The notes beneath the pieces were generated by a model. The model did no database searches. It saw only the letters and a list, made by a program, of their open reading frames with translations, and had not been told where the DNA came from. Below are positions 30,203 through 43,505 of a DNA stretch of 64,000 nt, in pieces; position 1 is the stretch's first letter; every line of letters starts with the position of its first letter. The stretch is from Lachnospiraceae bacterium (GTDB lineage Bacteria > Bacillota > Clostridia > Lachnospirales > Lachnospiraceae), in the NCBI GenBank assembly GCA_017441825.1, contig JAFRVD010000029.1, positions 20,738 through 84,737 on the forward strand, in the 5' to 3' direction. The position numbers and the translations under genes were made by a program.

Positions 30203-30760
30203 TCAGATGGATTCCGACTCCGTATTGTCCTTGCAGGAGACCACGATCTCCCGGAGCTTTTCATACATCGGATAGAGCACCGGGTCGGTGTAGCGCTCCC
30301 AGGACGCGCGGTCGTCGTTCAGGAAGAATTCGCGCAATTCGGACGCGGAAATGTCTATGGACTTCGGAATGTACAGCTCTGCAATGGAGACGCCGTTCAT
30401 GCCGTCAAACCAGCTGATCCTTCTGATCTCCTTGCCGGAGATCAAAAGGTCCGGCAGCATGCCGAAGTATTTCCGGACGTTGTCGAGTACGTACTCGCCC
30501 CATCGGGAAGTGTTGCCTATAAAGATGTCCGGAAGCGGGTATACGCTCACGGAATCCTGCGGGAACACGGTTTTTAAGATGCGCTTCCGCTCTTCCCAGG
30601 TGAACGGGTTTTTGATGGTGCGGGACTCCTGCGAGGACCCTAAGAAGATACCGACCTCGTCGCAGAGATCGACGGCAGTCTGTATCATCTCCTGATGTCC
30701 CAAGTGGAGCGCCTGGAAGCGTCCTACAAGGATCCCCAGGCGGTACGGTCTCAATTGCAT
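30203..30760 (-). CDS. Nicotinamide/nicotinate-mononucleotide adenylyltransferase (NadM/NadR-type cytidylyltransferase)
   Basis: 185 aa. The N-terminal GRFQALHLGH corresponds to the (H/T)xGH motif of NadM/NadR-type NMNATs. Lies 2 nt after nadE. Confidence 0.7.
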   Translation of the reverse strand: MQLRPYRLGILVGRFQALHLGHQEMIQTAVDLCDEVGIFLGSSQESRTIKNPFTWEERKRILKTVFPQDSVSVYPLPDIFIGNTSRWGEYVLDNVRKYFGMLPDLLISGKEIRRISWFDGMNGVSIAELYIPKSIDISASELREFFLNDDRASWERYTDPVLYPMYEKLREIVVSCKDNTESESI

Positions 30761-30762
30761 AA

Positions 30763-31488
30763 CTACACCTCCGGATCGAACATCGGCATCAGCTGGAGCT
30801 TGAACAGGTTCCTCTTATGGAGCATGTCGATCCGCGCCTTCTTCTCCATGTCCCTGATCTCCCCGGTCCGGATATAGCGGTCCAGCTCCTCATAGGTAAA
30901 GCCCAGGTTGTCCTCGTCGGTCTTCCCGGACAGCCCGTCGATGGGCACCTTGTCCACCAGCTCTTCCGGAAGGCCTAAGACCCGCCCGATCGCCTTCACT
31001 TCCTGAACGGTAAGCTTCGCCATGGGGCTGAAATCGCCCGCGGCGTCGCCGTAGCGGGTGGAGTAACCGACCCAGTCCTCGGAAAGGTTGCAGGTGTTCG
31101 CGACCCGCCCGTTAAAGCACTGGGAGACCGCGTAAAGAGTGGACATACGGATCCTGGGCGGCAGGTTCGTACGCGCCTGCTCGGAAAGCTCAAAAGGCAG
31201 CGCGTTCTTAATTCCGTCCACGGCGTCCTTGATATTGACGGTATACGAACGGATCCCGAGGTGCCGGACCAGAAGCTCCGCCATGTCGATGTCCGACTGT
31301 TCGCCGTTCGGCATCAGCACGCCGATGACCCTCTCCGTCCCCAAAGCTTCCGCGCACAGCGCCGCCGTGACCGAGCTGTCTTTCCCGCCGGAAATGCCCA
31401 CCACCGCGCAGCAGCCCTTTCCGTTCTCCTCAAAAAACGCGCGGATCCATTCCACACACGCATCCTTCACCTTCTTCGCGTCAAACAT
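30763..31488 (-). CDS. nadE: NH3-dependent NAD+ synthetase
   Basis: 241 aa. PP-loop GISGGKDSS, and a C-terminal region typical of short NadE. Confidence 0.9.
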   Translation of the reverse strand: MFDAKKVKDACVEWIRAFFEENGKGCCAVVGISGGKDSSVTAALCAEALGTERVIGVLMPNGEQSDIDMAELLVRHLGIRSYTVNIKDAVDGIKNALPFELSEQARTNLPPRIRMSTLYAVSQCFNGRVANTCNLSEDWVGYSTRYGDAAGDFSPMAKLTVQEVKAIGRVLGLPEELVDKVPIDGLSGKTDEDNLGFTYEELDRYIRTGEIRDMEKKARIDMLHKRNLFKLQLMPMFDPEV

Positions 31489-31514
31489 GGCTTACTCCTT
31501 CCGTTTTATGTTTC

Positions 31515-32036
31515 TCAGACCTCTTCAGCCGTGCGTCCTGTGACCACATTAAGAAGCTCCCTTGCGACTGCGTCCGCAGCGGAGACCTTGCTTTCATGGC
31601 GTGAAACGCCCAAAGGGAGCTTCCGGAAAAACGTCCCGGAGGCGTCTTTCGTTTCGATCGCAAAATACACCTCTCCCGGCACGGATGCGTCCGGATTCGC
31701 GGGGTCGACGTTTCCGAAGGACCCTGTGATCCCAACGCCTATGTCCGTCCCGAACGCCCGCCGGCATGCGGCTGCCATGGCAGAAGCCGTCTCTTTCGAG
31801 TACACCGTATATTTTTCAATGACCTCCCGCGGAACACCCGCCCGGATCTTCGCCTCGTTCGAGTACGTCACAAAAGCCCCGGGGAGCACCGCTGATGCGC
31901 CTTCCGTATCCGTGATGAGCGACGAAAGGAAGCCCGCGGTACAGCTCTCCATGGTGGTTATGGTGAGCCCCTCTGCGATCAGGGTCTTCGTGATCTTCTC
32001 ATATGCTGCACGGACAGCTTCCTCTCCCGGTATCAT
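31515..32036 (-). CDS. pncC: Nicotinamide-nucleotide amidohydrolase (CinA C-terminal domain, PncC)
   Basis: TMESCTAGFLSS motif (family consensus TAESCTGG), and ITGSFG. ATG at 32036 follows AAGGAGAA at good spacing. The upstream GTG at 32081 has no usable RBS spacing. Confidence 0.8.
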   Translation of the reverse strand: MIPGEEAVRAAYEKITKTLIAEGLTITTMESCTAGFLSSLITDTEGASAVLPGAFVTYSNEAKIRAGVPREVIEKYTVYSKETASAMAAACRRAFGTDIGVGITGSFGNVDPANPDASVPGEVYFAIETKDASGTFFRKLPLGVSRHESKVSAADAVARELLNVVTGRTAEEV

Positions 32037-32092
32037 TCCAGTCGTTCTCCTTTTCCCGGATCCATTCCCAGCCTGCTGCACTCTCCACCGTC

Positions 32093-32764
32093 TCAGCCTT
32101 CTCCCGGGACGGCCTTTCCTCCCCTGTTCGTAAACGGGTCGAGCGGCATATTGCTTTCCATCCGTCCGTCCGGGGTATAGATCACCATGCCGCCCGCCGG
32201 GATCCCGTAACCCGTAAAGCCTTCCGCGGAAAGCTCCACTGCCTTTTTAAGCTCCGGCCAGCCCTCGTCTTCACAATGGGTGTCAAATACGGTGGGCACA
32301 AAGCCGATGCAGTCGAACAGCCATGCATTGTCAAAATCGTTGTCTTCATCGTCCCAGTGCGGCCAGGCCTTTCCCATCATGATGGTGCCCGCAGAGATGC
32401 CGATATAAAGCGCTCCTGCTTCATACTGCTCCCAGAGCGCTGCACGGACGTCCTCCGGAAGGCCCTTCATGCCGTCCTCGACCTCTCCGCCGGAAATGAA
32501 GATCACCTGCGCGTCACGGATCGCCGCCTTCGCCTTTTCCACATTTCTCTTGCGGCCGACAAGCGGCGCCAGCGTCACTTTTTCCACACCGGCGGCCAGA
32601 AGGCCTTCCTTCATCCGCTCAAAAAACATGGGATGTTCGCCGTTCGCGGTGCCAATGTAGGCGGCCGAAGCTCCTTCCATGCCGTTCTCTCTGATTACAT
32701 CCCGGATCATTTTTCCGTCATCTTCTCCATGTCCAGCAATCAGATATATATTTCTTTTTGTCAT
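32093..32764 (-). CDS. Peptidase S51-like protein (PepE/cyanophycinase family, class-I glutamine-amidotransferase-like fold)
   Basis: 223 aa. ISGGE, nucleophile-elbow-like GISAGTIMMG and FDTHCEDE, consistent with an S51 Ser-His-Glu arrangement. The motifs are degenerate, so the call is tentative. Confidence 0.55.
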   Translation of the reverse strand: MTKRNIYLIAGHGEDDGKMIRDVIRENGMEGASAAYIGTANGEHPMFFERMKEGLLAAGVEKVTLAPLVGRKRNVEKAKAAIRDAQVIFISGGEVEDGMKGLPEDVRAALWEQYEAGALYIGISAGTIMMGKAWPHWDDEDNDFDNAWLFDCIGFVPTVFDTHCEDEGWPELKKAVELSAEGFTGYGIPAGGMVIYTPDGRMESNMPLDPFTNRGGKAVPGEG

Positions 32765-32773
32765 TTCTTCTCC

Positions 32774-34084
32774 TCAGCAAAGTGACCAGTCGTCAAATTC
32801 GAATTCTGTGTGCGTTCTCCGGTATTTTCCGGCCGGTCCGGGCAGAAGCTCGTCCACGATATCCACACTGAATGTTCCTTCCGGGCCGTACAGGCGCTTC
32901 AGGCTTTCGTAGCCCGCTTCCCGCATATCGGCAGAAGCCCCGTTCCCCTGAAGCCTGAGCAGATAGGTCTTCCGGTCGATCTGGCAGACGTCGTACTCCC
33001 GGAGGCCGGGGATCCCGCATACGGCAAGGTCCGCCATGCGGGTCGTCACTAGTCTTCCGTCCGGCGTAAAGGTCGAATTTGTCACCCGCCCTTCGATGGA
33101 TTCGGCAATAAAGCCCAGGTCCCTTCCGCAGGTGCACCCGCCCCGTTTGATCCGTACGAGGTCGCCCACGTCGAACCGAAGCATCACCGCCCACGGATTC
33201 CCGAAGGTGGATACCACCATCCGCCCGAGGTCCGGTCCGCCGAATTCCTCTTTTAAGGGCAGGAATTCGATCCGGTTATACGCAAGGTTCTCATGGTACA
33301 GCCCCTTTTCACAGGTGTCCATCACAAAGGCCGTCTCCGTTGTCCCGTAGGAGCTCACGAGCGGGCTCGAAAACACCTTCCGGATGGCCGCAAGGTGGAG
33401 CTCGGACGGCAGCTCATAGGTGAACGTGATCACGTCCGGAGATACGATCTCAAGGCCGTGGTCCAGTACGTAATAGCAGAGCTTTGCGAGGAGCGACGGG
33501 TTCGCCTCGAGCACTGTCGGCCGGTAGCTGTTCAGCTCCTCGACCATCCTTTTGAAATGCGCTTCCTTCCAGCAGATAATGTTCGCTTTCTCGTTGAGGT
33601 ACAGGAGGTTTCCCATGATCCGGTGGTCAAACGGCAGGTCCTCCTCGCAGCTGATGCCCACGTTGAGGGAGCTTGCGAGAGTGGCCTGCTTTGGCGGATA
33701 GGTAAGCTTTTTAAGGTTTTCATTGAGCTCCCAGGAAGCCATTTCAGACGCGTGCCACCAGGGCTGGTTCCAGAGGTTGATCACCTTGTCGCCGGTGGTG
33801 CCGCTCGTAAAGGTGTATTCGATCTCATCGTCGTCAAGACCCTGCCGGATGCTCTTTCCGTCCGGGACCGCGCCTGCCGGGAAGTACATCCGCATATCCG
33901 CCTTCGTGAGGACGGGCATGGCCGCGAACCGTTCGTCGATGGGACAGCTCCTGCCCGGATCGTATTTCGCCCAATGCTCCCGGTAGTAGGGCACGTGGTC
34001 GAGTGCAAAGTTTAAGAGTTCTTCCGAGCGTGCATCCCTGTCCTCAGGGTACCGGAAGACCTTTTTTAAGTCCATTGCCTTCAT
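32774..34084 (-). CDS. Adenylate-forming enzyme, phenylacetate-CoA ligase/coenzyme F390 synthetase/CapK-like
   Basis: 436 aa. ANL-superfamily P-loop FTSGTTGDK, SYGTTE core motif, and a size typical of the PaaK/F390 clade. The ATG overlaps the upstream stop (ATGA). Confidence 0.7.
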   Translation of the reverse strand: MKAMDLKKVFRYPEDRDARSEELLNFALDHVPYYREHWAKYDPGRSCPIDERFAAMPVLTKADMRMYFPAGAVPDGKSIRQGLDDDEIEYTFTSGTTGDKVINLWNQPWWHASEMASWELNENLKKLTYPPKQATLASSLNVGISCEEDLPFDHRIMGNLLYLNEKANIICWKEAHFKRMVEELNSYRPTVLEANPSLLAKLCYYVLDHGLEIVSPDVITFTYELPSELHLAAIRKVFSSPLVSSYGTTETAFVMDTCEKGLYHENLAYNRIEFLPLKEEFGGPDLGRMVVSTFGNPWAVMLRFDVGDLVRIKRGGCTCGRDLGFIAESIEGRVTNSTFTPDGRLVTTRMADLAVCGIPGLREYDVCQIDRKTYLLRLQGNGASADMREAGYESLKRLYGPEGTFSVDIVDELLPGPAGKYRRTHTEFEFDDWSLC

Positions 34085-35214
34085 GTGTCACTCCTGTCTT
34101 CCGTATCGTACGGAACCCGCGGCTCAGGGTACCGGAATATCCTGCCCTGATAGTTTTCAAAAACGATCTCATGCTCGTCATGAGAGATCATGTACTGGTA
34201 GCTGAACGGCACCTTTCCGCCGCCGCCCGGCGCGTCGATCACGAACTTCGGGATCGCAAAGCCCGTAATGTTTCCCTGGAGCGCGTGGATGATATCGATC
34301 CCGGTCTGAACAGGGGTCCGGAAATGGCCGATGCCGCGTGTCAGGTCACACTGGTACAGGTAGTACGGGCGGATCCGCGCGTGGATCAGCCTGAGAAGCA
34401 GCGCTTTCATTTTCTCCGGCGTATCGTTAATGCCGCGGAGAAGGACGGACTGGTTTCCGAGCGGGATCCCCGCATCCGCGATCCTGCCGCAGGCCGCTTC
34501 GCTCTCCGGCGTGAGCTCCTGTACGTGGTTGAAATGCGTATTGATCCAGATGGGCTGGTATTTTTTCAGCATGGAGAGGAGTCCCTCATCGATCCGCATT
34601 GGGAGGACTACGGGCACTCGCGTCCCGATCCGGATAATATCGACGTGGGGGATCTCCCGGAGTCTTCTCACGATCTCTTCAAGGCGTTCCGTGGAAAGCG
34701 TCAGCGGGTCTCCGCCGGATATAAGGACGTCGCGGACCTCCTCATGATCCCGGATGTAGCCGATGGCCCGGTCCAGCGCTTCTCCCTGGATCGCGTGATC
34801 CTCTTCCCCGACGATCCTCCTCCTCGTACAGTGCCGGCAGTATTCCGCGCACTCTAACGTCACGAGGAACAGGACCCGGTCCGGATACCGGTGCGTGATG
34901 AACGGGACGGGGCTGTCCCCGGTCTCGTTTAGGGGATCCTCCCGGTCGTCCGTGTTATCAGCGAGCTCCCTGAATGAAGGGATGCTCTCGCGCCTTACCG
35001 GATCGTCCGGGTCGCTCACGTCGATCAGGGACAGATAATACGGTGTTACCGCCATCCGGAAGCGTACAAGGCACGCGTCGATCTCTTTTTTCTCTTCCGG
35101 TGACACGGGGATCCATTTTGACAACTCCTCCGCGTTCCGCACGCGGTTCCGCATCTGCCAGTGCCAGTCATTCCATTCCGGGTATTTCAGCGCCCACTCT
35201 TCTGTCTTCGTCAT
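34081..35214 (-). CDS. KamA-family radical SAM aminomutase (lysine 2,3-aminomutase-like, C-terminally short form)
   Basis: 377 aa. Near-collinear with Clostridium KamA as I recall it: WNDWHWQMRNR, AVTPYYLSLID..DP.DPVR, THRYPDRVL, radical-SAM CAEYCRHC, NTHFNH, GNQSVLLRGIND, RPYYLYQCDL, HFRTPV, and DAPGGGGK (the PLP lysine). Confidence 0.9.
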   Translation of the reverse strand: MTKTEEWALKYPEWNDWHWQMRNRVRNAEELSKWIPVSPEEKKEIDACLVRFRMAVTPYYLSLIDVSDPDDPVRRESIPSFRELADNTDDREDPLNETGDSPVPFITHRYPDRVLFLVTLECAEYCRHCTRRRIVGEEDHAIQGEALDRAIGYIRDHEEVRDVLISGGDPLTLSTERLEEIVRRLREIPHVDIIRIGTRVPVVLPMRIDEGLLSMLKKYQPIWINTHFNHVQELTPESEAACGRIADAGIPLGNQSVLLRGINDTPEKMKALLLRLIHARIRPYYLYQCDLTRGIGHFRTPVQTGIDIIHALQGNITGFAIPKFVIDAPGGGGKVPFSYQYMISHDEHEIVFENYQGRIFRYPEPRVPYDTEDRSDT

Positions 35215-35215
35215 T

Positions 35216-36241
35216 TCAGGCCTCTTTTTCTTCCGTGCGCTTCAATGCATGGAGGTAGACCGCGAACACGATGTCGTCATAGCTGTATCCTTCGGACTCC
35301 GCAGCCATCGGATAGTCGCTGTAGTCCGGCGCGAGGCCGGGCAGCGGGTTCAGCTCCAGGAAGCACGGCTCCCCGGCGCCGTTCATGCGGAAATCGATCC
35401 GCGAAACGTCCCGGCACCCGAGGACTGTAAAAAGCGTCCTCGCGGCATCCGTCATTTCCCGCTCGGCTTCCGCGGAGATCCGGGCCGGGCATTCATAGTG
35501 AACGTACTTCCTGAAATCCTTTTTGATCCTGTAGCTGTAGACGTAAAAATCTTCTTCAGTCGGCTCATGGTAGCAGATCTCCATGGGACGGAAGACGCGG
35601 ATGTCCGGCCCGTTTCCTAAAAGGCCGACTGTAAATTCACGCCCGGGAAGATATTCTTCCGCGAGCATTTTCCCGCGGTACTCGCGGAAGCACGCGGTGA
35701 GGAGCTCCGTGAATTCGTGAGCGTCCTTCGCGATGCTCCGGTCAAAGATCCCGCGGCCTGAACCCTCCGCGTTCGGCTTCAGGATCACGGGATAGGTGAG
35801 CTCTTCCGCGCGGGCAGAAAGATCGTCGTCCGGGGAGACCACGATCCCTTTCGGGACGCGGATCCCGCAGGATCCCGCAAGGCGCTTGCAGAGCTCCTTG
35901 TCAAGAGTCACTCCCATCACGGCGGCGTCGCTCCCCATGTAGGGTATATTCAGAAGTCCAAGAAGTCCGGGCACATGCGCTTCCCGGTCCCGTCCGTGCT
36001 TCCCTTCCGCAAGGTTGAACGCGAAACGGATCTCCTTTTCCTTCAGGTTCTCAGCAAGATTTTCATCAGCCTCAAGAATAACTGCCGGTACGCCGTGCCG
36101 GCGCAGGACGTCCGTGATCGCCTCTATGGTCTCCGGGCTGTCAAATTCCGCCTCGGAATCCGCGGCGCTTTCCGCATCCTCAAGCCCGCTCTTCCTGTTG
36201 CAGATCACGGCTGTCTTCGGGTATCGTCTGTCTGTCTCCAT
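35216..36241 (-). CDS. ATP-grasp ligase of the D-Ala-D-Ala-ligase-like family (non-canonical)
   Basis: 341 aa. The central and C-terminal ATP-grasp pattern is present (PVILKPNAEGSGRGI, EEYLPGREFTVGLLG, SRIDFRM...FLELNPLPG). The canonical Ddl N-terminal GGxSxEHxVS motif is absent. Confidence 0.8.
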   Translation of the reverse strand: METDRRYPKTAVICNRKSGLEDAESAADSEAEFDSPETIEAITDVLRRHGVPAVILEADENLAENLKEKEIRFAFNLAEGKHGRDREAHVPGLLGLLNIPYMGSDAAVMGVTLDKELCKRLAGSCGIRVPKGIVVSPDDDLSARAEELTYPVILKPNAEGSGRGIFDRSIAKDAHEFTELLTACFREYRGKMLAEEYLPGREFTVGLLGNGPDIRVFRPMEICYHEPTEEDFYVYSYRIKKDFRKYVHYECPARISAEAEREMTDAARTLFTVLGCRDVSRIDFRMNGAGEPCFLELNPLPGLAPDYSDYPMAAESEGYSYDDIVFAVYLHALKRTEEKEA

Positions 36242-36256: not shown

Positions 36257-37048
36257 TCAGTTAGCTGTGAGTGCTGTGATCATCGACATGAGCACGTCTT
36301 TCGTAAGCGTCCCTGTGTATCCGCCTAAAATGCTTCCGTCCTTTGCGATCGCTACGGTCACCGGGATCGCGTTGATCCCGTACGTGTACGCCGCGTTGAG
36401 CTCCGTGTCGTAGTATACCGGGAAGGTGTATTCGTTGTCCGCAATGAACTCCTTCACCTTTTCCAGGGTATCCCCGCCGGTCAGGAGGTTGATCATGAGG
36501 AACTGGACCTCATCGCCGTACTCCTGTGAAAGCTCTTCAAAATGCGGAAGCTCCTGCCTGCAGGGGCCGCACCAGGTCGCCCAGAAATTCACTATGACGG
36601 GCTTCCCGAAGAATGATGAAAGGCGGATTTCATTGCCTTCTTCGTCATAAATGGTAAAGTCCGGCGCGGGCTCGGCAAGTGCATCGCCCTCCGCGTCGTT
36701 CCCGGCGAGGGCGTCTCCTTCCGCATCCATGTCGGCCATGGCGTCACCCTCCGCGTCCATGTCCGCCATCGCGTCGCCCTCCGCAGGAAGCCGTTCCTCC
36801 GTTGAAGCCTCCGATGCCTCCGTGTCCGGGGCCGCCTCAGGCTCCGAAGTTCCATCCGGAGCTGCCGTATCCGCCGGTACTTCTCCGTTATCCTGCGGCG
36901 CTGTATTCTCCGCTGAAGCCTCCGTGGACCCGCCCGAAAACCCCGGGTTCTCCGGCCTGTATTTTTCTGACAGCCACTGGTAGCCAAAATAGCCAAGCAC
37001 GAGGACCGCAAGAAGAGCGGTCACTGTCAGCACTGCTTTTTTCTTCAT
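36257..37048 (-). CDS. Membrane-anchored thiol-disulfide oxidoreductase (TlpA/ResA-like thioredoxin fold) with an acidic repeat linker
   Basis: N-terminal TM anchor, a long acidic linker, and a thioredoxin domain with [11 protein letters not shown] (CxxC). Confidence 0.85.
36671..36781 (-). repeat. In-frame 30-nt tandem repeat (about 4 units) encoding [10 protein letters not shown]-type decapeptides
   Basis: Protein segment [38 protein letters not shown]. The DNA shows the matching 30-nt periodicity. Confidence 0.7.
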
Positions 37049-37060
37049 TGCATTCTCCCT

Positions 37061-37711
37061 TTACAGGATGGACAGGAACCGGTTCAAAAGCCCTGTCATC
37101 ATCAGGACGCCTATGAGGATCAGGAAGATCCCGCAAACTAAGTCGATCACTTTATAATGCTTCTTTACAAACCCGAACACACCCTTAAGCTCCGAAAGAA
37201 GGACGGCGGAAAGGATGAACGGCACGCCGAGCCCCATCGAATACACGAAAAGAAGGGTCAGGCCCTTCACGGCGCTTCCGGACTGGGACGCGAGCATGAT
37301 GGCTGAGCCTAAGAAAGCACCCACACACGGCGTCAGGCTGACCGAATAGATCATGCCGAACAGGAACGCGGAAAAGACGCCGGTGACATTGGCGCTCTTC
37401 GTCATGCCCTTTAAGAAGTTCAGGGGGATGATCCCGAGGTACGAAAGCCCGAACACGATCACTATAAGGCCCGTCACGATGTTCACCGCAGTCTGGTACT
37501 TTTTCAGCAGCATGCCGAGCGTACCGGCAAAAACCCCCAAGAGACAGAAAACAACCGTAAAGCCGGCCACAAACGCAGCCGACCTCACGGCAGTATTCTT
37601 CCTGCCGGCGTCTCCCCCGCCAAAATATGAGACGTACATGGGGAGCATCGGCAGCATGCAGGGAGAGATGAACGAGATCAGTCCCTCCAGAAAAGTGATC
37701 AGGTACTGCAA
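37061..37711 (-). CDS. ccdA: Cytochrome-c-biogenesis-type thiol-disulfide transporter CcdA (DsbD family)
   Basis: 216 aa, 6 TM. Conserved SPCMLP and LTPCVG cysteine motifs. Apparent TTG start 6 nt after AGAGAGGA. Confidence 0.85.
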   Translation of the reverse strand: MQYLITFLEGLISFISPCMLPMLPMYVSYFGGGDAGRKNTAVRSAAFVAGFTVVFCLLGVFAGTLGMLLKKYQTAVNIVTGLIVIVFGLSYLGIIPLNFLKGMTKSANVTGVFSAFLFGMIYSVSLTPCVGAFLGSAIMLASQSGSAVKGLTLLFVYSMGLGVPFILSAVLLSELKGVFGFVKKHYKVIDLVCGIFLILIGVLMMTGLLNRFLSIL

Positions 37712-38902: not shown

Positions 38903-38942
38903 AAAAAACAAGCCGGGGCGGGTACCCGCTCCGGCTTGTTTT
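38903..38942 (-). terminator. Intrinsic terminator after the histidine kinase gene (bidirectional shape)
   Basis: AACAAGCCGGGGCGG-GTAC-CCGCTCCGGCTTGTT (one mismatch), flanked by AAAAAA and TTTT. Confidence 0.7.
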
Positions 38943-38947
38943 AAATA

Positions 38948-40294
38948 TTATTTATCGAGCGGAATCTGCACGGTAAACGTGACGATGCCGTCCGCACACC
39001 CGATACTGATCTTCCCCTTGTGCGCCTCTGTAATGGCCTTCGCGATGGGAAGCCCCAGGCCGTAATGCCCGGATCCGCCAGTCCGCGCCGTATCCAGCCG
39101 GAAGAAGCGTTCGAACAGCCTGCTTCTCTGATCCTCCGGGATCTCCTCCCCGTGATTTGAGACCGCAAGGACCGCGTGCTTATGCTCGGCCGTCAGCGTG
39201 ACGTCCACACTGTCCCCGCCCGTGCTGTGGCTGATCGCGTTGTCTGTCAGGATCGAGACCAGCTGGCAGAGCTGCCCCGGATTCCCGAGGACGCAGAGCC
39301 CCTCCGTAAGCGTACTCCGAAGCTCGAGTCCATGTTCAAAGGCGACGCTCTCAAACGGCAGGATCTCCTGCGTGACAAGCCTTGAAAAGTCCACCTCTTC
39401 CGGCACGAACGCCGCGTTTTCCGCGCGGGACAGCGTCAGAAGCTCTGTCACAAGTCCGCCCATACGCTCGTTTTCGTACTGGATGTTCGAAAGCCACTCG
39501 TTCTTCCCGATCTGTCTCGAAAGAAGCTCCGCGTTCGTACTGATGACCGCCACCGGCGTCTTCAGCTCGTGCCCGGCGTCGGAAATGAACTGCTTCTGCT
39601 TCCGGTCGTTTTCTTCGAGCGGCCGGACGATGGCGCGCGCGATGAATACGGAAGCCGTGAGGAGGACCAGCACGCCGATCACTCCGGTGACCAGCGTGAT
39701 CCGGAGCACCCGGTCCATGCTGTTCTGGGTGACTGTCGTATCCAGGAACGCGACCAGGCAATACCCGTCCCGTTCCGCTGTCTCATAGAGAAGCGTCCCT
39801 TTCTTTCCTGTGGTCTTCCCGCTCTCCCGGACCTCCTCCGCGAGTGCGACGATATCCTCCGCTGAATACAGGGCGTTATTGCCGGCGTCCGCAGCGAGCA
39901 CCTCGCCGGACCCGGAAAACGCGACCGAGTAGAAGGACGACAGCCGGAACATGTCCTGGTCTCTCAGACGGTCCCGCATGCCGCCGGGGGCGGGTGAATC
40001 ATCCCGGTCGTCCCGGTCGTCCGAATCGTCCAAATCGTCAGGATCGTCAAGGTCGTCCGGATCGTCAAGGTCATCAGGATCGTCCGGATGCATCCCGTCC
40101 GGCAGCCCCGGAATCACTCCGTCCGGGCCTTTTTCCAGCCGGTAACGCTCGACGAAATCCGAAAGCATCTTCTGGTTCTGCCGCCTCGTGGACAGATTGC
40201 TGGAGACGATGATGGCCGCAAGCGTCAGCGTGAGGAACAGGATCAGTCCGCCCATGAGGGCTAATACGATATTTCGTCTGGTCCTACTGAACAT
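38948..40294 (-). CDS. Two-component sensor histidine kinase
   Basis: 448 aa. Two TM segments flank a loop of about 160 aa. H-box SDAGHELKTP. N, G1 and G2 boxes present (DNAISHS, GGSGHYGLGL). Confidence 0.85.
   Translation of the reverse strand: MFSRTRRNIVLALMGGLILFLTLTLAAIIVSSNLSTRRQNQKMLSDFVERYRLEKGPDGVIPGLPDGMHPDDPDDLDDPDDLDDPDDLDDSDDRDDRDDSPAPGGMRDRLRDQDMFRLSSFYSVAFSGSGEVLAADAGNNALYSAEDIVALAEEVRESGKTTGKKGTLLYETAERDGYCLVAFLDTTVTQNSMDRVLRITLVTGVIGVLVLLTASVFIARAIVRPLEENDRKQKQFISDAGHELKTPVAVISTNAELLSRQIGKNEWLSNIQYENERMGGLVTELLTLSRAENAAFVPEEVDFSRLVTQEILPFESVAFEHGLELRSTLTEGLCVLGNPGQLCQLVSILTDNAISHSTGGDSVDVTLTAEHKHAVLAVSNHGEEIPEDQRSRLFERFFRLDTARTGGSGHYGLGLPIAKAITEAHKGKISIGCADGIVTFTVQIPLDK
39995..40084 (-). 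repeat. In-frame 9-nt tandem repeat x10 encoding (Asp-Asp-X)10
   Basis: Plus-strand units are RTCRTCNNN x10. Protein: DDP DDL DDP DDL DDP DDL DDS DDR DDR DDS, within the kinase sensor loop. Confidence 0.75.
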
Positions 40295-40970
40295 CCGGGC
40301 ACCTCAGTTCGTAGCCGATCCCGCGGACAGCCTTGATCTCTGTTTTCGCGTCCACAAAGGCCAGCTTCTTTCTCGTGAAGGACATGTAGACCTCCACGTT
40401 GTTGTATTCCGCGTCAGACTCATAGCCCCAGATCCGGAGCGCAAGCTGCTCCCGTGAAAGGATCTGGCTCTGGTTCGCGATCATGTATTCCAGGATCTTA
40501 TACTCTTTTTCTCCAAGACGCACGGACCGTCCCGAGGACGTGCAGAAAAGCTCCGCGGTCTCCTGCCGGAGCTCAATGTCGCCGAAGGCCGGGCCGCTTT
40601 CGCGGTAGCCCTGGTTCCGCCGCGTCAGCGCGCGGAGGCGCGCAAGAAGCTCCTTAGACATAAACGGCTTCGTCAGGTAGTCGTCCGCGCCGGAGTCGAG
40701 GCCGGTCACTTTATCGTCGAGCTCACTCTTTGCGGTCAGCATCAGGATGGGTGTTTTATTCCCTCCCTTCCTGATCTCTGACGCCACCTTATAGCCGTTC
40801 ATCCGGGGCATCATGACGTCCAGGACCATCACGTCATAGATCCCGCTCTCCGCCGCCATAAGTGCGGATTCTCCGTCGGCAAAGTGGTCCACCTCATAGC
40901 CTTCAAGCGCGAGAAGCTGTGTGAGGGCGTCCGCCATTCTCTTTTCGTCTTCGGCAAGCAGAAGCTTCAT
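40284..40970 (-). CDS. OmpR/PhoB-family response regulator
   Basis: Receiver domain (MKLLLAEDE..VLDVMMP..LTAK) plus winged-helix output (..VEVYMSFTRKKL). Start at MKLLLAEDE after AGGGAGGG. The 3' end overlaps the kinase start. Confidence 0.9.
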   Translation of the reverse strand: MKLLLAEDEKRMADALTQLLALEGYEVDHFADGESALMAAESGIYDVMVLDVMMPRMNGYKVASEIRKGGNKTPILMLTAKSELDDKVTGLDSGADDYLTKPFMSKELLARLRALTRRNQGYRESGPAFGDIELRQETAELFCTSSGRSVRLGEKEYKILEYMIANQSQILSREQLALRIWGYESDAEYNNVEVYMSFTRKKLAFVDAKTEIKAVRGIGYELRCPDVQ

Positions 40971-41074
40971 ACCGTTCCCTCCCTTTAATGGTCTCAGGGG
41001 CGTTCTTCCGTCCCTGTCTGTCATTCTAAGAGTCAAAGCTTGAAAAAGGATTGAAACGAAAGGATCTTTACGGT

Positions 41075-41734
41075 CTATCTTTTGAGATACGCCGATGACA
41101 CCGGAAACTCGAAATACGTATCCGGGTACGGCTCGTCTTTGAGTACAAAGTGCCACCATTCGCAGAAAAGAGGCGCGAAGCCGTGCCGGCCCATGACCTT
41201 CTGGAGGTACATCCGGTTCCCGTACTGCTCGTCCGTGATCCCGCGGTAATCCGGGTGGGACACCGGGCTGAACATGTCAAAGGGGCTCCCCATATCCACT
41301 TCCCTGCCTGTCTCCATGGACAGGAGTGTTAAATCCACGGCGCTGCCGCGGCTGTGGCTGGACTGGCTTGCGATGTAGCCTTCCTTAAACAGGACCTGCT
41401 TTTCGAGGTCCGGGTAGAAGAACGGCTTCATCCGGAGGTCGAGGTCATCGATGCCCCACATCATGAAATGCCGGACCGCGGAGGCCGGGCGGTACGCGTC
41501 AAAGATCTTCAGCCGGTACCCGTGTACGTTCACTTCGTTCGCGACTTCCCGGAGCGCACGCGCCGCTTCCCGCGTCATAAGCGCGCAGGGCTCTTCGTAG
41601 CCGTCGATCCTGTCGCCCACGAAATTGTATGTGGAAAAGTAGCGGATCTCCTGGACGATCCCCGGGACGTAATCGGAAAGAAGGACAAATCCTGAGGGGT
41701 CCATCGTCACCTGTTTCTTAAAATCAGCCGGCAT
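41075..41734 (-). CDS. D-alanyl-D-alanine dipeptidase (VanX/DdpX, peptidase M15D)
   Basis: Zinc and catalytic motifs SHSRGSAVDLT and EWWHF. ATG at 41734 lies 8 nt after AAGGAGG. The ORF-track GTG at 41743 abuts the RBS. Confidence 0.85.
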   Translation of the reverse strand: MPADFKKQVTMDPSGFVLLSDYVPGIVQEIRYFSTYNFVGDRIDGYEEPCALMTREAARALREVANEVNVHGYRLKIFDAYRPASAVRHFMMWGIDDLDLRMKPFFYPDLEKQVLFKEGYIASQSSHSRGSAVDLTLLSMETGREVDMGSPFDMFSPVSHPDYRGITDEQYGNRMYLQKVMGRHGFAPLFCEWWHFVLKDEPYPDTYFEFPVSSAYLKR

Positions 41735-41747
41735 TTCTGGCACCTCC

Positions 41748-43505
41748 TTAAGATGCTTCTTCCCGTTCCCCGGGAAGCCTCAGCGCGAGATTGTTGAGAC
41801 TCAGTGAATACGTGTACTGTGCTTCGTCCGCCATTGCGAGCGTCAGGCGGATGCCCAGGGCGTCTTTTCCTTCTGCCGGGATGTAGTGCACCGGGTCGAA
41901 GGCGCGGCAGTCGTCGCGGAAACGGATCACCCAGCTGTCTTCCTTATGGAGCAGGCGGACGGACAGCCGGTGCGGTTTGTCATCTTTTTTAAAGCCGTGA
42001 TCGATCACGTTCGCGGCCATTTCTTCAATACAGAGCGCGATGCGCTTCGAAAGCCGGCTGCTCTGTCCGCGCTCAAGGCAGAACTGCTCCGCTTCCTGAG
42101 AAACCCGCACCGCGTCTTCAAGCGTCGCGATGTCCGTTTCCATCAGCTGGTCCGCCGGGACGCCGAAGGAATCATTGAGAAGGAGGTATGCGCCGTCCCG
42201 CCAGGGGGCGCTCTTCGTACGTTGCCGGATCAGGACAGCGATCATAAGGAGTGTCAGGAGCTCGCCCGAGACAAAGTAGAACCAGACGCCGAACGTTCCC
42301 AGGAAGCGGCTCAGGATCAGTGCCCCAACAGCCGGGAAGACCAGCTGCTCCATAACGGAAATGAGTTCGGTGAGCCTCGTCTTTTCCATGCCCTGATAGC
42401 TGCTCTTGAGCGCTGCCGTTAGGCAGATGGGGATCATGCCGGCGGAATAGAGACGGATGCCCGTGACTGCCATGTCCCTGGCCGGGCTGTCCTCCGTGAT
42501 AAAGAACCGCGCGAAAAGAGGCGCGCAGAGGATCAGGACGGCCCCAACCACTATACCTAAGAACACGCTCGAACGCGCCATCGTCTGAATCAGGACCTTG
42601 AGGCCGGTGCGGTCCTCTTCCTGATATAAAATACCGGAAAGCGTCAGGGTCACCCCGTTGATCCCGGTCGAAACACAGTTCGCGGAGTTGCCGATGGTGC
42701 TTATGACGGAGAATGCCGCAACAGCCAGGGCGCCGCCTGTCCCGAGAAGGATCTGGTTCAGGACTACCACAAGCACCACTCCCGCCGCCATATTGATGAG
42801 CGAGGGCAGGCCGCCCGCAAGCATTTCGCGCATCTTCGCGAAGGACACCTGCTTCAGCGAGAATTTAAACACGCATTTTTTCGTAAAGAAATACCAGCCG
42901 CCCACAATAAGCGCGCAGTAATAGCTGATGGCGGAGGCCAGACCCATCCCGAACATGCCGCCGTGGACCACAAAAACGTTTACGAGGTCCAGAGCGATAT
43001 CAGTAACAGTCATCGCGAGTACTGCGGCAACCAGGATGCCGCTCTGTCCGGCGATCTGCAGGAACGGCACCAGGATCAGGGCGCCCATCGTAGCCGGCGC
43101 GCCGATAACGAACGCCGTCATATAGTCCCTCGTATCCGTAAACAGAGTGCCTTCCGACCCTGCGCCGGAAGCCCTCGCAATGAACGAACGGAACAGGAAC
43201 ACGAAAAGCATCAGCGAAAACGCTACGCCGAAGCCCAGCACGATGGCAGAGGAATAGCCTCTGTTCGTCTCCTCCTGGGAGCCCTTACCGAGCGACTTGC
43301 TGCAGGCGACCTGGATGCCGGCGGCAAGCATGCTTCCGAACGCGGCAAGCACGAGAAGCACCGGACTGGCCAGCTGGTATGCGGACAGCGCTTCTACGCC
43401 TAAATATCTTCCGATGATCACACTGTCGATCAACAGGCACACGGAAACTGTGAGCGCGGAAAAGATCTGCGCGAACAGCATCTGCCGGATCAGTCTGCGG
43501 ATCAT
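41748..43505 (-). CDS. MATE-family efflux transporter fused to a C-terminal cytoplasmic GHKL/HATPase_c-like domain
   Basis: 585 aa. Residues 1 to about 430 form a 12-TM MATE-like core. Residues about 430-585 are soluble and carry an N-box-like IEEMAANVIDHG, RDDCRAFDP and ALGIRL, resembling SpoIIAB/RsbW-type ATPase domains. Confidence 0.75.
   Translation of the reverse strand: MIRRLIRQMLFAQIFSALTVSVCLLIDSVIIGRYLGVEALSAYQLASPVLLVLAAFGSMLAAGIQVACSKSLGKGSQEETNRGYSSAIVLGFGVAFSLMLFVFLFRSFIARASGAGSEGTLFTDTRDYMTAFVIGAPATMGALILVPFLQIAGQSGILVAAVLAMTVTDIALDLVNVFVVHGGMFGMGLASAISYYCALIVGGWYFFTKKCVFKFSLKQVSFAKMREMLAGGLPSLINMAAGVVLVVVLNQILLGTGGALAVAAFSVISTIGNSANCVSTGINGVTLTLSGILYQEEDRTGLKVLIQTMARSSVFLGIVVGAVLILCAPLFARFFITEDSPARDMAVTGIRLYSAGMIPICLTAALKSSYQGMEKTRLTELISVMEQLVFPAVGALILSRFLGTFGVWFYFVSGELLTLLMIAVLIRQRTKSAPWRDGAYLLLNDSFGVPADQLMETDIATLEDAVRVSQEAEQFCLERGQSSRLSKRIALCIEEMAANVIDHGFKKDDKPHRLSVRLLHKEDSWVIRFRDDCRAFDPVHYIPAEGKDALGIRLTLAMADEAQYTYSLSLNNLALRLPGEREEAS

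Follow-up and report, generated by a model that had tools for sequence, protein, structure and literature searches.

A recurrent, modular gene set built around a lysine-type aminomutase: a candidate pathway for the synthesis and hydrolysis of beta-lysine amides

What is beta-lysine for, when the aminomutase that would make it is encoded beside ligase-like enzymes and a hydrolase rather than beside the genes of lysine fermentation? This question is raised by a four-gene block in a 64,000-nucleotide stretch of DNA from a Lachnospiraceae bacterium (contig JAFRVD010000029.1 of assembly GCA_017441825.1, positions 20,738 to 84,737), hereafter the window. The known fates of beta-lysine are lysine fermentation, the methanogen osmolyte N-epsilon-acetyl-beta-lysine, the modification of EF-P and some antibiotics. 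Judging from the protein sequences, we give roughly even chances to the possibility that the four genes specify an undescribed, modular pathway in which a beta-lysine-based amide or peptide would be synthesised and hydrolysed. A full-text literature search found no description of the gene set. Its parts, read along the minus strand, are:

35216..36241, minus strand: Ddl-family ATP-grasp ligase, 341 aa, the first gene of the block
34081..35214, minus strand: short KamA/LAM-type (lysine 2,3-aminomutase-type) aminomutase with radical S-adenosylmethionine (SAM) and pyridoxal phosphate (PLP) chemistry, 377 aa
32774..34084, minus strand: PaaK-fold (ANL superfamily) adenylating enzyme, 436 aa
32765..32773, minus strand: 9-nt spacer 'ggagaagaa' with a GGAG ribosome-binding site, from the adenylating-enzyme TGA to the S51 ATG, read from the sequence
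32093..32764, minus strand: S51-family Ser/His hydrolase, 223 aa

The first-pass annotation of this DNA had described four packed minus-strand genes, and direct reading of the sequence bears it out in coordinates, junctions and motifs. A single base (35215) lies between the ATP-grasp TGA and the KamA ATG, the KamA stop and the adenylating-enzyme start overlap as ATGA at 34081-34084, and the translations hold CAEYCRHC, APGGGGK, YQCDL, IDAPGG and TSGTTGDK. The G+C content of the block is the same as that of its surroundings.

Is the aminomutase of the lysine type? It aligns without a gap over 354 residues with the Clostridium subterminale LAM (2A5H; E = 8e-144, 57% identity), and its D290, D327 and R131 correspond to LAM Asp293, Asp330 and Arg134, with Lys337 also kept; the first-pass annotation had correctly matched the two aspartates to those of the lysine enzyme. 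Both the LAM_C and the Radical_SAM domains are found. The best-scoring model is the AblA equivalog TIGR03820 (510.4 bits against a cut-off of 525.4), which is narrowly missed for want of a match to the C-terminal part of the model, and the KamA family model TIGR00238 is passed (339.7 against 199.2), while the glutamate and arginine aminomutase models are well under cut-off. Among the cluster-linked KamA homologues, CxxxCxxC, Arg134, Asp293, Asp330 and Lys337 (LAM numbering) are invariant in 48 out of 48. The position of the zinc ligand Cys268 is Thr in the window protein and D, N, S, T or E in all 48, never Cys. The window protein ends after ...YPEP... without the CxCxxC tail, in keeping with the C-terminal Cys cluster having been reported missing, and this tail is absent from all the printed C-termini of 57 complete KamA open reading frames (ORFs), most of which stop soon after '...YPQP'; two of them (L039 and L115) run on beyond this usual end. 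Hence, we predict a lysine-type 2,3-aminomutase that lacks the zinc site and the C-terminal domain. That such short enzymes form a single clade is unproven: in a neighbour-joining tree with only one canonical reference sequence, the main group lies on one side of the C. subterminale LAM and the Acidobacteria/L039 sequences on the other.

Where might the beta-lysine go? The established routes find no counterpart around the block. As the first-pass annotation had stated, neither lysine-fermentation genes nor ablB lie beside the cluster: kamDE, kdd, kce, kal, ammonia-lyase and acyl-CoA (acyl-coenzyme A) dehydrogenase genes are not conserved next to it, and an AblB-type GNAT occurs neither in the block nor conserved nearby; of the loci tested, a single acidobacterial one (L062) has a RimI-like GNAT, about 1 kb from the ATP-grasp gene. 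The annotated contexts hold no tRNA-synt_2 (EpmA-type) genes and no pyl genes. One might also imagine that a macromolecule is modified, for instance that a translation factor or some other protein is beta-lysylated and the ATP-grasp enzyme stands in for EpmA, since the KamA-family EpmB feeds beta-lysine to EF-P and RimK-like ATP-grasps modify proteins. However, the window aminomutase scores as LAM/AblA and fails the EpmB model TIGR03821 (245.7 against 369.3), neither the window nor 176 related loci (2.1 Mb) contain an efp gene, the cluster is also present in an archaeon, where aIF5A with hypusine is used, and the ligase is accompanied by a dedicated hydrolase. We regard this explanation as very unlikely.

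The ATP-grasp protein matches the C-terminal domain of Ddl (PF07478 Dala_Dala_lig_C; 107.7 bits, 7e-31), with no match to the N-terminal domain PF01820 (Dala_Dala_lig_N), and lies under the cut-off of every NCBIfam Ddl/Van model (best 177.7 against 243, the others far lower). A profile of its family retrieves DdlB structures with E = 1e-38 to 1e-42, and its 60 best solved-structure relatives do not include PylC. Four residues (K155, R281, D283 and N298) do not vary across 94 ATP-grasp relatives, and two more (S161 and E296) are conserved in at least 90% of them; K155, R281, D283, N298 and E296 align with K144, R255, D257, N272 and E270 of Ddl. The pocket is different: H63 and L282 of Ddl are replaced by E79 and D309, both invariant, and the position of Ddl Tyr216 is a Lys position in this family. 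The N-terminus cannot be aligned to Ddl and has EAEFDSPxT instead of the Glu15 motif, with E32 and D34 invariant in the family, so that the canonical N-terminal motif, as had been noted earlier, is indeed lacking. These features point to a putative Ddl-type ligase that would be catalytically intact and have acidic substrate pockets. Among the metagenome loci of the close clade, KamA directly adjoins the ATP-grasp gene in 17 of the 19 that can be evaluated.

That this is instead an ordinary cell-wall D-Ala-D-Ala or Van-type ligase with incidental neighbours is suggested by its best family and structure matches, all Ddl/Van enzymes, and by a VanX-type dipeptidase with a two-component system 5 kb away; yet the wide failure of every Ddl/Van cut-off, the missing Dala_Dala_lig_N domain with the replaced Ddl pocket residues, the nearly constant adjacency of KamA and the presence of the gene in a Methanoplasma archaeon leave this alternative barely credible. 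The stretch 38948-41743 (minus strand) encodes the dipeptidase (Peptidase_M15, 136 bits), its gene immediately preceding those of an OmpR-type response regulator and a HisKA kinase, a layout of the VanRS plus VanX-like kind, with neither VanA/VanH nor a second Ddl in the 64-kb window.

A sister clade of the ATP-grasp family, 38-43% identical and usually with a tandem double ATP-grasp of 550-700 aa, is found in soil metagenomes, with long relatives in Myxococcota. There, a Peptidase_S58 (DmpA/BapA-type) gene comes next in 14 loci and KamA is absent; 13 of these are:

Peptidase_S58 as the gene after the ATP-grasp gene: L125-L127, L130, L140, L150, L156, L158, L159, L161, L166, L168, L169

This pairing in the sister clade indicates that a ligase with a dedicated exopeptidase recurs in this ligase lineage.

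The hydrolase of the window belongs to a narrow clade of the S51 peptidases (PF03575, 58.6 against a cut-off of 23.9, 9e-16) and to neither of the named families that were scored, as it fails the cyanophycinase model TIGR02069 (29.3 against 126.6) and the PepE model NF003642 (25.2 against 156). Its AlphaFold2 model is of high confidence (predicted local distance difference test score, pLDDT, 95), and all 19 structure matches at E <= 0.001 are S51 proteins (pseudo-CphB 7UQV, PepE, CphB and other S51 peptidases); CphB is also the best solved relative of its profile. In the profile alignment with CphB (3EN0), Ser132, Asp172 and His174 are kept as S124, D161 and H163. The arginine pocket of CphB is gone: Arg178 is deleted, Arg180 is G168 and Arg183 is E171, and Gln101 is V95. 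In a set of 73 S51 sequences S124 (in GxSAG) and H163 are invariant, as are D161 and E165 near the His and E171, the last being at least 90% conserved in a second alignment. Taken at face value, these residues predict a hydrolase with an intact Ser/His pair and an acidic patch in place of the cyanophycinase arginine pocket.

For the adenylating enzyme, all curated models stay below threshold, including AMP-binding PF00501 (21.9 against 29.9), PaaK (25 against 700) and the F390-synthetase-related model (36.6 against 251.9). Its AlphaFold2 model (pLDDT 85) has as its best Foldseek matches BT_0428, PaaK1, ClxA, AjiA1, NatL2 and HCL, with template-modelling (TM) scores of about 0.7 and 15-18% identity. 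An alignment of 21 sequences shows no change in TSGTT, YGxTET or the C-terminal Lys420, and the three are near-invariant in 83. A search of 1.84 billion 50%-identity clusters gave 193 representatives at E < 1e-30, a narrow clade with a conserved insert of its own (WNQxWW... and ...SSLNVGIxCEEDLP). The CEED stretch of this insert is well kept in KamA-linked copies and variable in others, a difference inseparable from phylogeny. The protein is thus modelled as a complete PaaK-fold enzyme of an unnamed narrow clade, for which CoA-thioester formation or ligation is the predicted activity. A CxCG(R) motif was considered as a special sulfur or metal site tied to SufS and rejected, being common to ClxA, BT_0428 and AjiA1. 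Plasmid carriage was likewise dropped, as the best plasmid match is a CapK at 25.7% identity and not an orthologue. Overall, three of the four proteins reach the specific cut-off of no curated family model.

An enzyme of this fold could instead serve catabolism or salvage, with KamA opening lysine degradation, the PaaK-fold enzyme acting as a beta-lysine or beta-aminoacyl CoA ligase and S51 freeing the substrate from peptides. The PaaK family does include CoA ligases and a beta-valinyl-CoA ligase, peptidase genes recur near the adenylating enzyme, and the hosts are anaerobes of gut, rumen, digester and peat that presumably ferment peptides. Against this, the fermentation, ammonia-lyase and acyl-CoA dehydrogenase genes named above are not conserved nearby, and an ATP-spending Ddl-type ligase that almost always comes with KamA is a biosynthetic signature. 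We accordingly consider a catabolic role quite unlikely.

The preferred alternative, a synthesis-and-hydrolysis pathway, would run in four steps. First, the short KamA very probably turns L-lysine into beta-lysine. Second, the ATP-grasp enzyme would spend ATP to form an acyl-phosphate and join beta-lysine with a partner as an amide, the candidates ranging from a beta-lysyl dipeptide or an isopeptide to a short oligomer. Third, and more doubtfully, the PaaK-fold enzyme might activate a second carboxylate through an acyl-adenylate, either for CoA-independent ligation, as in NatL2, AjiA1 and ClxA, or for an aminoacyl-CoA, as in BvaA, a PaaK-family enzyme that activates the beta-amino acid beta-valine as a CoA thioester (PMC4619459). 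Fourth, S51 would cleave the resulting amide, giving a built-in pair for synthesis and mobilisation. One may guess that the acidic replacements in both ligase and hydrolase suit substrates with extra ammonium groups.

Does the set hold together outside the window? We scanned species-representative genomes with the adenylating enzyme and metagenome contigs with the ATP-grasp enzyme; the related loci retrieved bear L-numbers, and in the gene orders below A is the adenylating enzyme, P the S51 hydrolase, G the ATP-grasp ligase and K KamA. The scan with the adenylating enzyme gave 80 genome loci from many phyla, all in metagenome-assembled genomes, with no cultured carrier among them. Joined gene sets were found in at least five orders:

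A>P>G>K: 14 loci
G>K>A>P: 5 loci and the window
K<G< A>P> (divergent): 1 locus
G<K< A>P> (divergent): 1 locus
G>K>P, with A 10 kb or 290 kb off on the same contig: 3 genomes, one of them checked in part only

Recurrence in other genomes had been set beforehand as a test of the proposal, and the four genes do recur, in rearranged orders and also split within one genome. Since the four families come together in many unrelated genomes and in several orders, their co-occurrence goes beyond chance. The S51 gene travels with either pair, and of the 66 loci that can be evaluated, 56 have it within 2.5 kb downstream of the adenylating enzyme. The set consists of two two-gene modules, ATP-grasp with KamA and adenylating enzyme with S51, working together in some lineages but not bound into one obligatory operon. 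The earlier picture of a single coupled unit therefore stands in so far as the genes recur together, but gives way to that of two modules, each very often alone within 10 kb. Evidently, the ATP-grasp and KamA pair is able to make an end product by itself, and the adenylating enzyme and S51 pair functions without a nearby KamA; as each module stands alone, the four-gene form is therefore best seen as a fusion of two cooperating modules.

The hosts comprise Clostridia, Erysipelotrichia, Bacilli, Coriobacteriia, Treponema, Dehalococcoidia, a Bacteroidales-like genome and Ca. Methanoplasma, with a looser form of the set in Acidobacteria; they are anaerobes from samples of gut, termite gut, rumen, digester and peat. 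The full four-gene set of the archaeon (L001/L053, 8001-12143) is on a contig binned as Ca. Methanoplasma, two genes away from an archaeal type II GAPDH. In the neighbour-joining tree its KamA is sister to the KamA of one termite-gut Eubacteriaceae genome, which indicates transfer from bacteria to archaea in the termite gut.

Several observations weigh against a joint beta-lysine pathway. KamA, always beside the ATP-grasp gene, is present in just 13 of the 33 adenylating-enzyme loci whose flanks extend 8 kb or more each way, 37 A>P loci are alone within 10 kb, and 21 G>K loci have no adenylating enzyme or S51 in the recovered DNA (at most 10 kb on each side, some cut by contig ends). With the modules so often alone and KamA in only 13 of 33 loci, beta-lysine need not be what the adenylating enzyme and S51 act upon. 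The canonical triad residue Glu201 of CphB aligns with P189/A190 of the window S51, which are not acidic, and this clade conserves no basic residue able to hold an aspartyl group. It should be kept in mind that the third triad residue of S51 enzymes varies and is hard to align, and that the family includes clades of unassigned substrate, while the characterised members all recognise and cut next to an aspartyl residue (PMC9239234). A SufS-family cysteine desulfurase gene, which a beta-lysine pathway does not explain, directly follows the adenylating enzyme in 18 loci from four phyla, including Acidobacteria, Spirochaetota and Chloroflexota:

SufS-family gene after the adenylating enzyme, at about 11.0-12.5 kb in most: L050-L052, L055, L057, L061-L066, L068, L070, L071, L073, L075, L076, L082

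The gene scores 415 bits on TIGR01979, just below cut-off, and in Acidobacteria it sits between the adenylating enzyme and S51. Finally, a physiological clue is wanting: no transporter or regulator is conserved across the related loci, and the riboswitches of 19 related loci come down to two molybdenum cofactor (Moco)/tungsten aptamers.

Could the two modules then be functionally separate and just often neighbours, with G and K making a beta-lysine compound and A and P belonging to an unrelated peptide, amino-acid or sulfur metabolism? Besides the very common occurrence of either pair alone and the SufS association, the varied company of the second module speaks for this. An M2/M3-like metallopeptidase gene is directly upstream of the A and P pair in Aminicenantes and an acidobacterial metagenome-assembled genome (L058, L059, L072 and L077, the acidobacterial one being L058; about 8.2-9.9 kb), a C70 (AvrRpt2-like) cysteine peptidase comes after a lone adenylating-enzyme gene in one Bacillota genome (L002, 9386-10171), an M20 gene adjoins S51 in L004, and the neighbourhood in a dehalococcoidian locus (L051) is a sulfur-metabolism supercluster throughout, with CysK, MetY, ThiF, NifS, IscS-IscU and MnmA. 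However, the pairs are joined in those several orders in distant phyla and an archaeon, S51 has moved to the ATP-grasp and KamA pair in three genomes that keep the adenylating enzyme on the same contig, and in the window the genes are only 1 nt and 9 nt apart at two junctions and overlap by 4 nt at the other. Hence, separate functions appear unlikely to us, without being negligible.

If the two modules do cooperate around beta-lysine, what is the product? A small molecule of the cytoplasm is the probable answer: it might act as a compatible solute, store nitrogen or be a polycation. As the characterised S51 enzymes cut by aspartyl residues and a compatible solute should be zwitterionic, a zwitterionic isopeptide of Asp or Glu with beta-lysine is an attractive guess, with any specific product being far less probable than the pathway as such; a beta-lysyl dipeptide or oligo-beta-lysine may be made instead. 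The bolder proposal would be that uncultured anaerobes, including a Methanoplasma that acquired the genes by transfer, make an undescribed beta-lysine peptide, isopeptide or oligomer that is built by a Ddl-type ATP-grasp adapted to cations together with an enzyme of a new PaaK-fold clade, and mobilised by a charge-reversed S51. We offer this version tentatively, as possible and on the unlikely side. Of the first-pass reading, in which beta-lysine is ligated and the product can be hydrolysed, the present analysis lends partial support.

The block is embedded in a longer co-directional minus-strand array with very short gaps (30203-32081 and 36257-37711), which has CcdA and a ResA-like thioredoxin upstream of the block and CinA/PncC, NadE and an NMN (nicotinamide mononucleotide) adenylyltransferase (NMNAT) downstream of it. 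The ResA-like gene ends 15 nt upstream of the ATP-grasp start, the CinA/PncC ORF starts 11 nt past the S51 stop, and no convincing terminator lies between the four genes and these neighbours. The tight spacing that the first-pass annotation read as packing for translational coupling is thus real, but not specific to the four genes, as it extends into both flanks. None of the flank genes (ResA-like, CcdA, CinA/PncC, NadE, NMNAT) was found in the related loci searched, a search that covered the retrieved loci other than L175 and L176, and it is because the flank genes are not kept there that the four genes count as the conserved unit. For the same reason, we dropped a link to nicotinamide adenine dinucleotide (NAD) metabolism through CinA/PncC, NadE and NMNAT and one to thiol-disulfide exchange through the ResA-like protein and CcdA.

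Some neighbours deserve mention in their own right. The ResA/TlpA-like thioredoxin (36257-37048, minus strand) has a repetitive acidic linker that joins the thioredoxin domain to an N-terminal membrane anchor. At 38905-38942 there is a strong palindromic hairpin of 17 pairs, flanked by an A-run and a T-run; its form suggests a terminator that works in both directions, and the long minus-strand array probably begins there. A gene at 41748-43505 (minus strand) encodes a MatE-type transporter with a fused C-terminal HATPase_c_2 (anti-sigma-factor-kinase-like) domain, an unusual pairing. MatE exporters near some related loci were dropped as candidates, their frequency being judged, by rough estimate, not above chance. 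Anti-phage defence was ruled out, PADLOC giving no match for any of the four proteins. The two aptamers mentioned above are:

L012, 2788-2909, minus strand: Moco/tungsten riboswitch RF01055, about 54 bits, just upstream of the adenylating enzyme, on the opposite strand
L034, 59-180, minus strand: Moco/tungsten riboswitch RF01055, about 54 bits, just upstream of the adenylating enzyme, on the opposite strand

Being on the strand opposite to the adenylating enzyme, these would serve the divergent neighbour. Riboswitch control of the set was rejected, as the window has no match to any Rfam cis-regulatory element and the two aptamers elsewhere face away.

If the pathway exists as proposed, it would be a fourth physiological use of beta-lysine, beside fermentation, N-epsilon-acetyl-beta-lysine and EF-P modification, and a small-enzyme counterpart of the cycle of cyanophycin synthesis and degradation. 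A conserved and horizontally mobile combination of KamA, two ligases and a hydrolase points to an unstudied metabolite in dominant organisms of gut, rumen, digester and peat. The enzymes might be of practical use for beta-peptide bonds, namely a Ddl-type ligase with a cation pocket, a new PaaK-fold clade and an S51 of reversed charge, and the block, at 4.1 kb, is compact, modular and suited to intact expression.

How does the set compare with known systems? It belongs to none of AblA/AblB, CphA/CphB, PylB/PylC and EpmA/EpmB, for want of the AblB GNAT, the CphB pocket, kinship with PylC and an EpmB-level score, respectively. As in AblA/AblB, a LAM-type aminomutase would make beta-lysine for an adjacent modifying enzyme, and the window KamA scores best on the AblA model; here, however, the place of the GNAT is taken by a Ddl-family ligase, an ANL enzyme and a hydrolase, and KamA is without the zinc site and C-terminal domain. 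EpmB/EpmA offers a short KamA-family enzyme, also without the C-terminal domain, that gives beta-lysine to a ligase, but the window enzyme stays below the EpmB cut-off, an ATP-grasp takes the place of a LysRS paralogue as the ligase, and there is no linkage to efp. With PylB/PylC the set shares the logic of a radical-SAM lysine mutase followed by a Ddl-like, amide-forming ATP-grasp. The first-pass likeness to that system survives as an analogy, whereas kinship does not: KamA is a PLP 2,3-aminomutase and not a methylornithine synthase, PylC is missing from the 60 best solved relatives of the ATP-grasp, and there is no PylD.

Likewise, in CphA/CphB an ATP-grasp and an S51 enzyme are encoded together and two ATP-dependent ligase chemistries meet in one system. 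Of the cyanophycin likeness drawn earlier, the S51 fold and the Ser/His pair stand, but in the absence of the binding residues of CphB (Gln101 and Arg178/180/183) it is an analogy only; moreover, the ligases here are separate small Ddl and PaaK proteins in place of a G-domain plus a Mur-like M-domain, and the supply of beta-lysine is built in. Carnosine synthase, an ATP-grasp that ligates a beta-amino acid and is paired with a dipeptidase, and the L-amino-acid ligases provide a further parallel, an ATP-grasp joining a beta-amino acid to a partner with a dedicated dipeptidase (carnosinase), though the present set differs in its ATP-grasp subfamily, its amino acid and its family of peptidase. 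The adenylating enzyme has the same two-domain fold and adenylation motifs as NatL2, AjiA1 and ClxA, which form esters or amides independently of CoA, and as BvaA, the precedent for beta-amino-acid activation, but is set apart from the former by its 15-18% identity and its clade-specific insert. The hydrolase, lastly, shares the S51 fold and the Ser/His nucleophile pair with MccG and other S51 clades, and differs from MccG in not being linked to mcc genes and in its acidic pocket.

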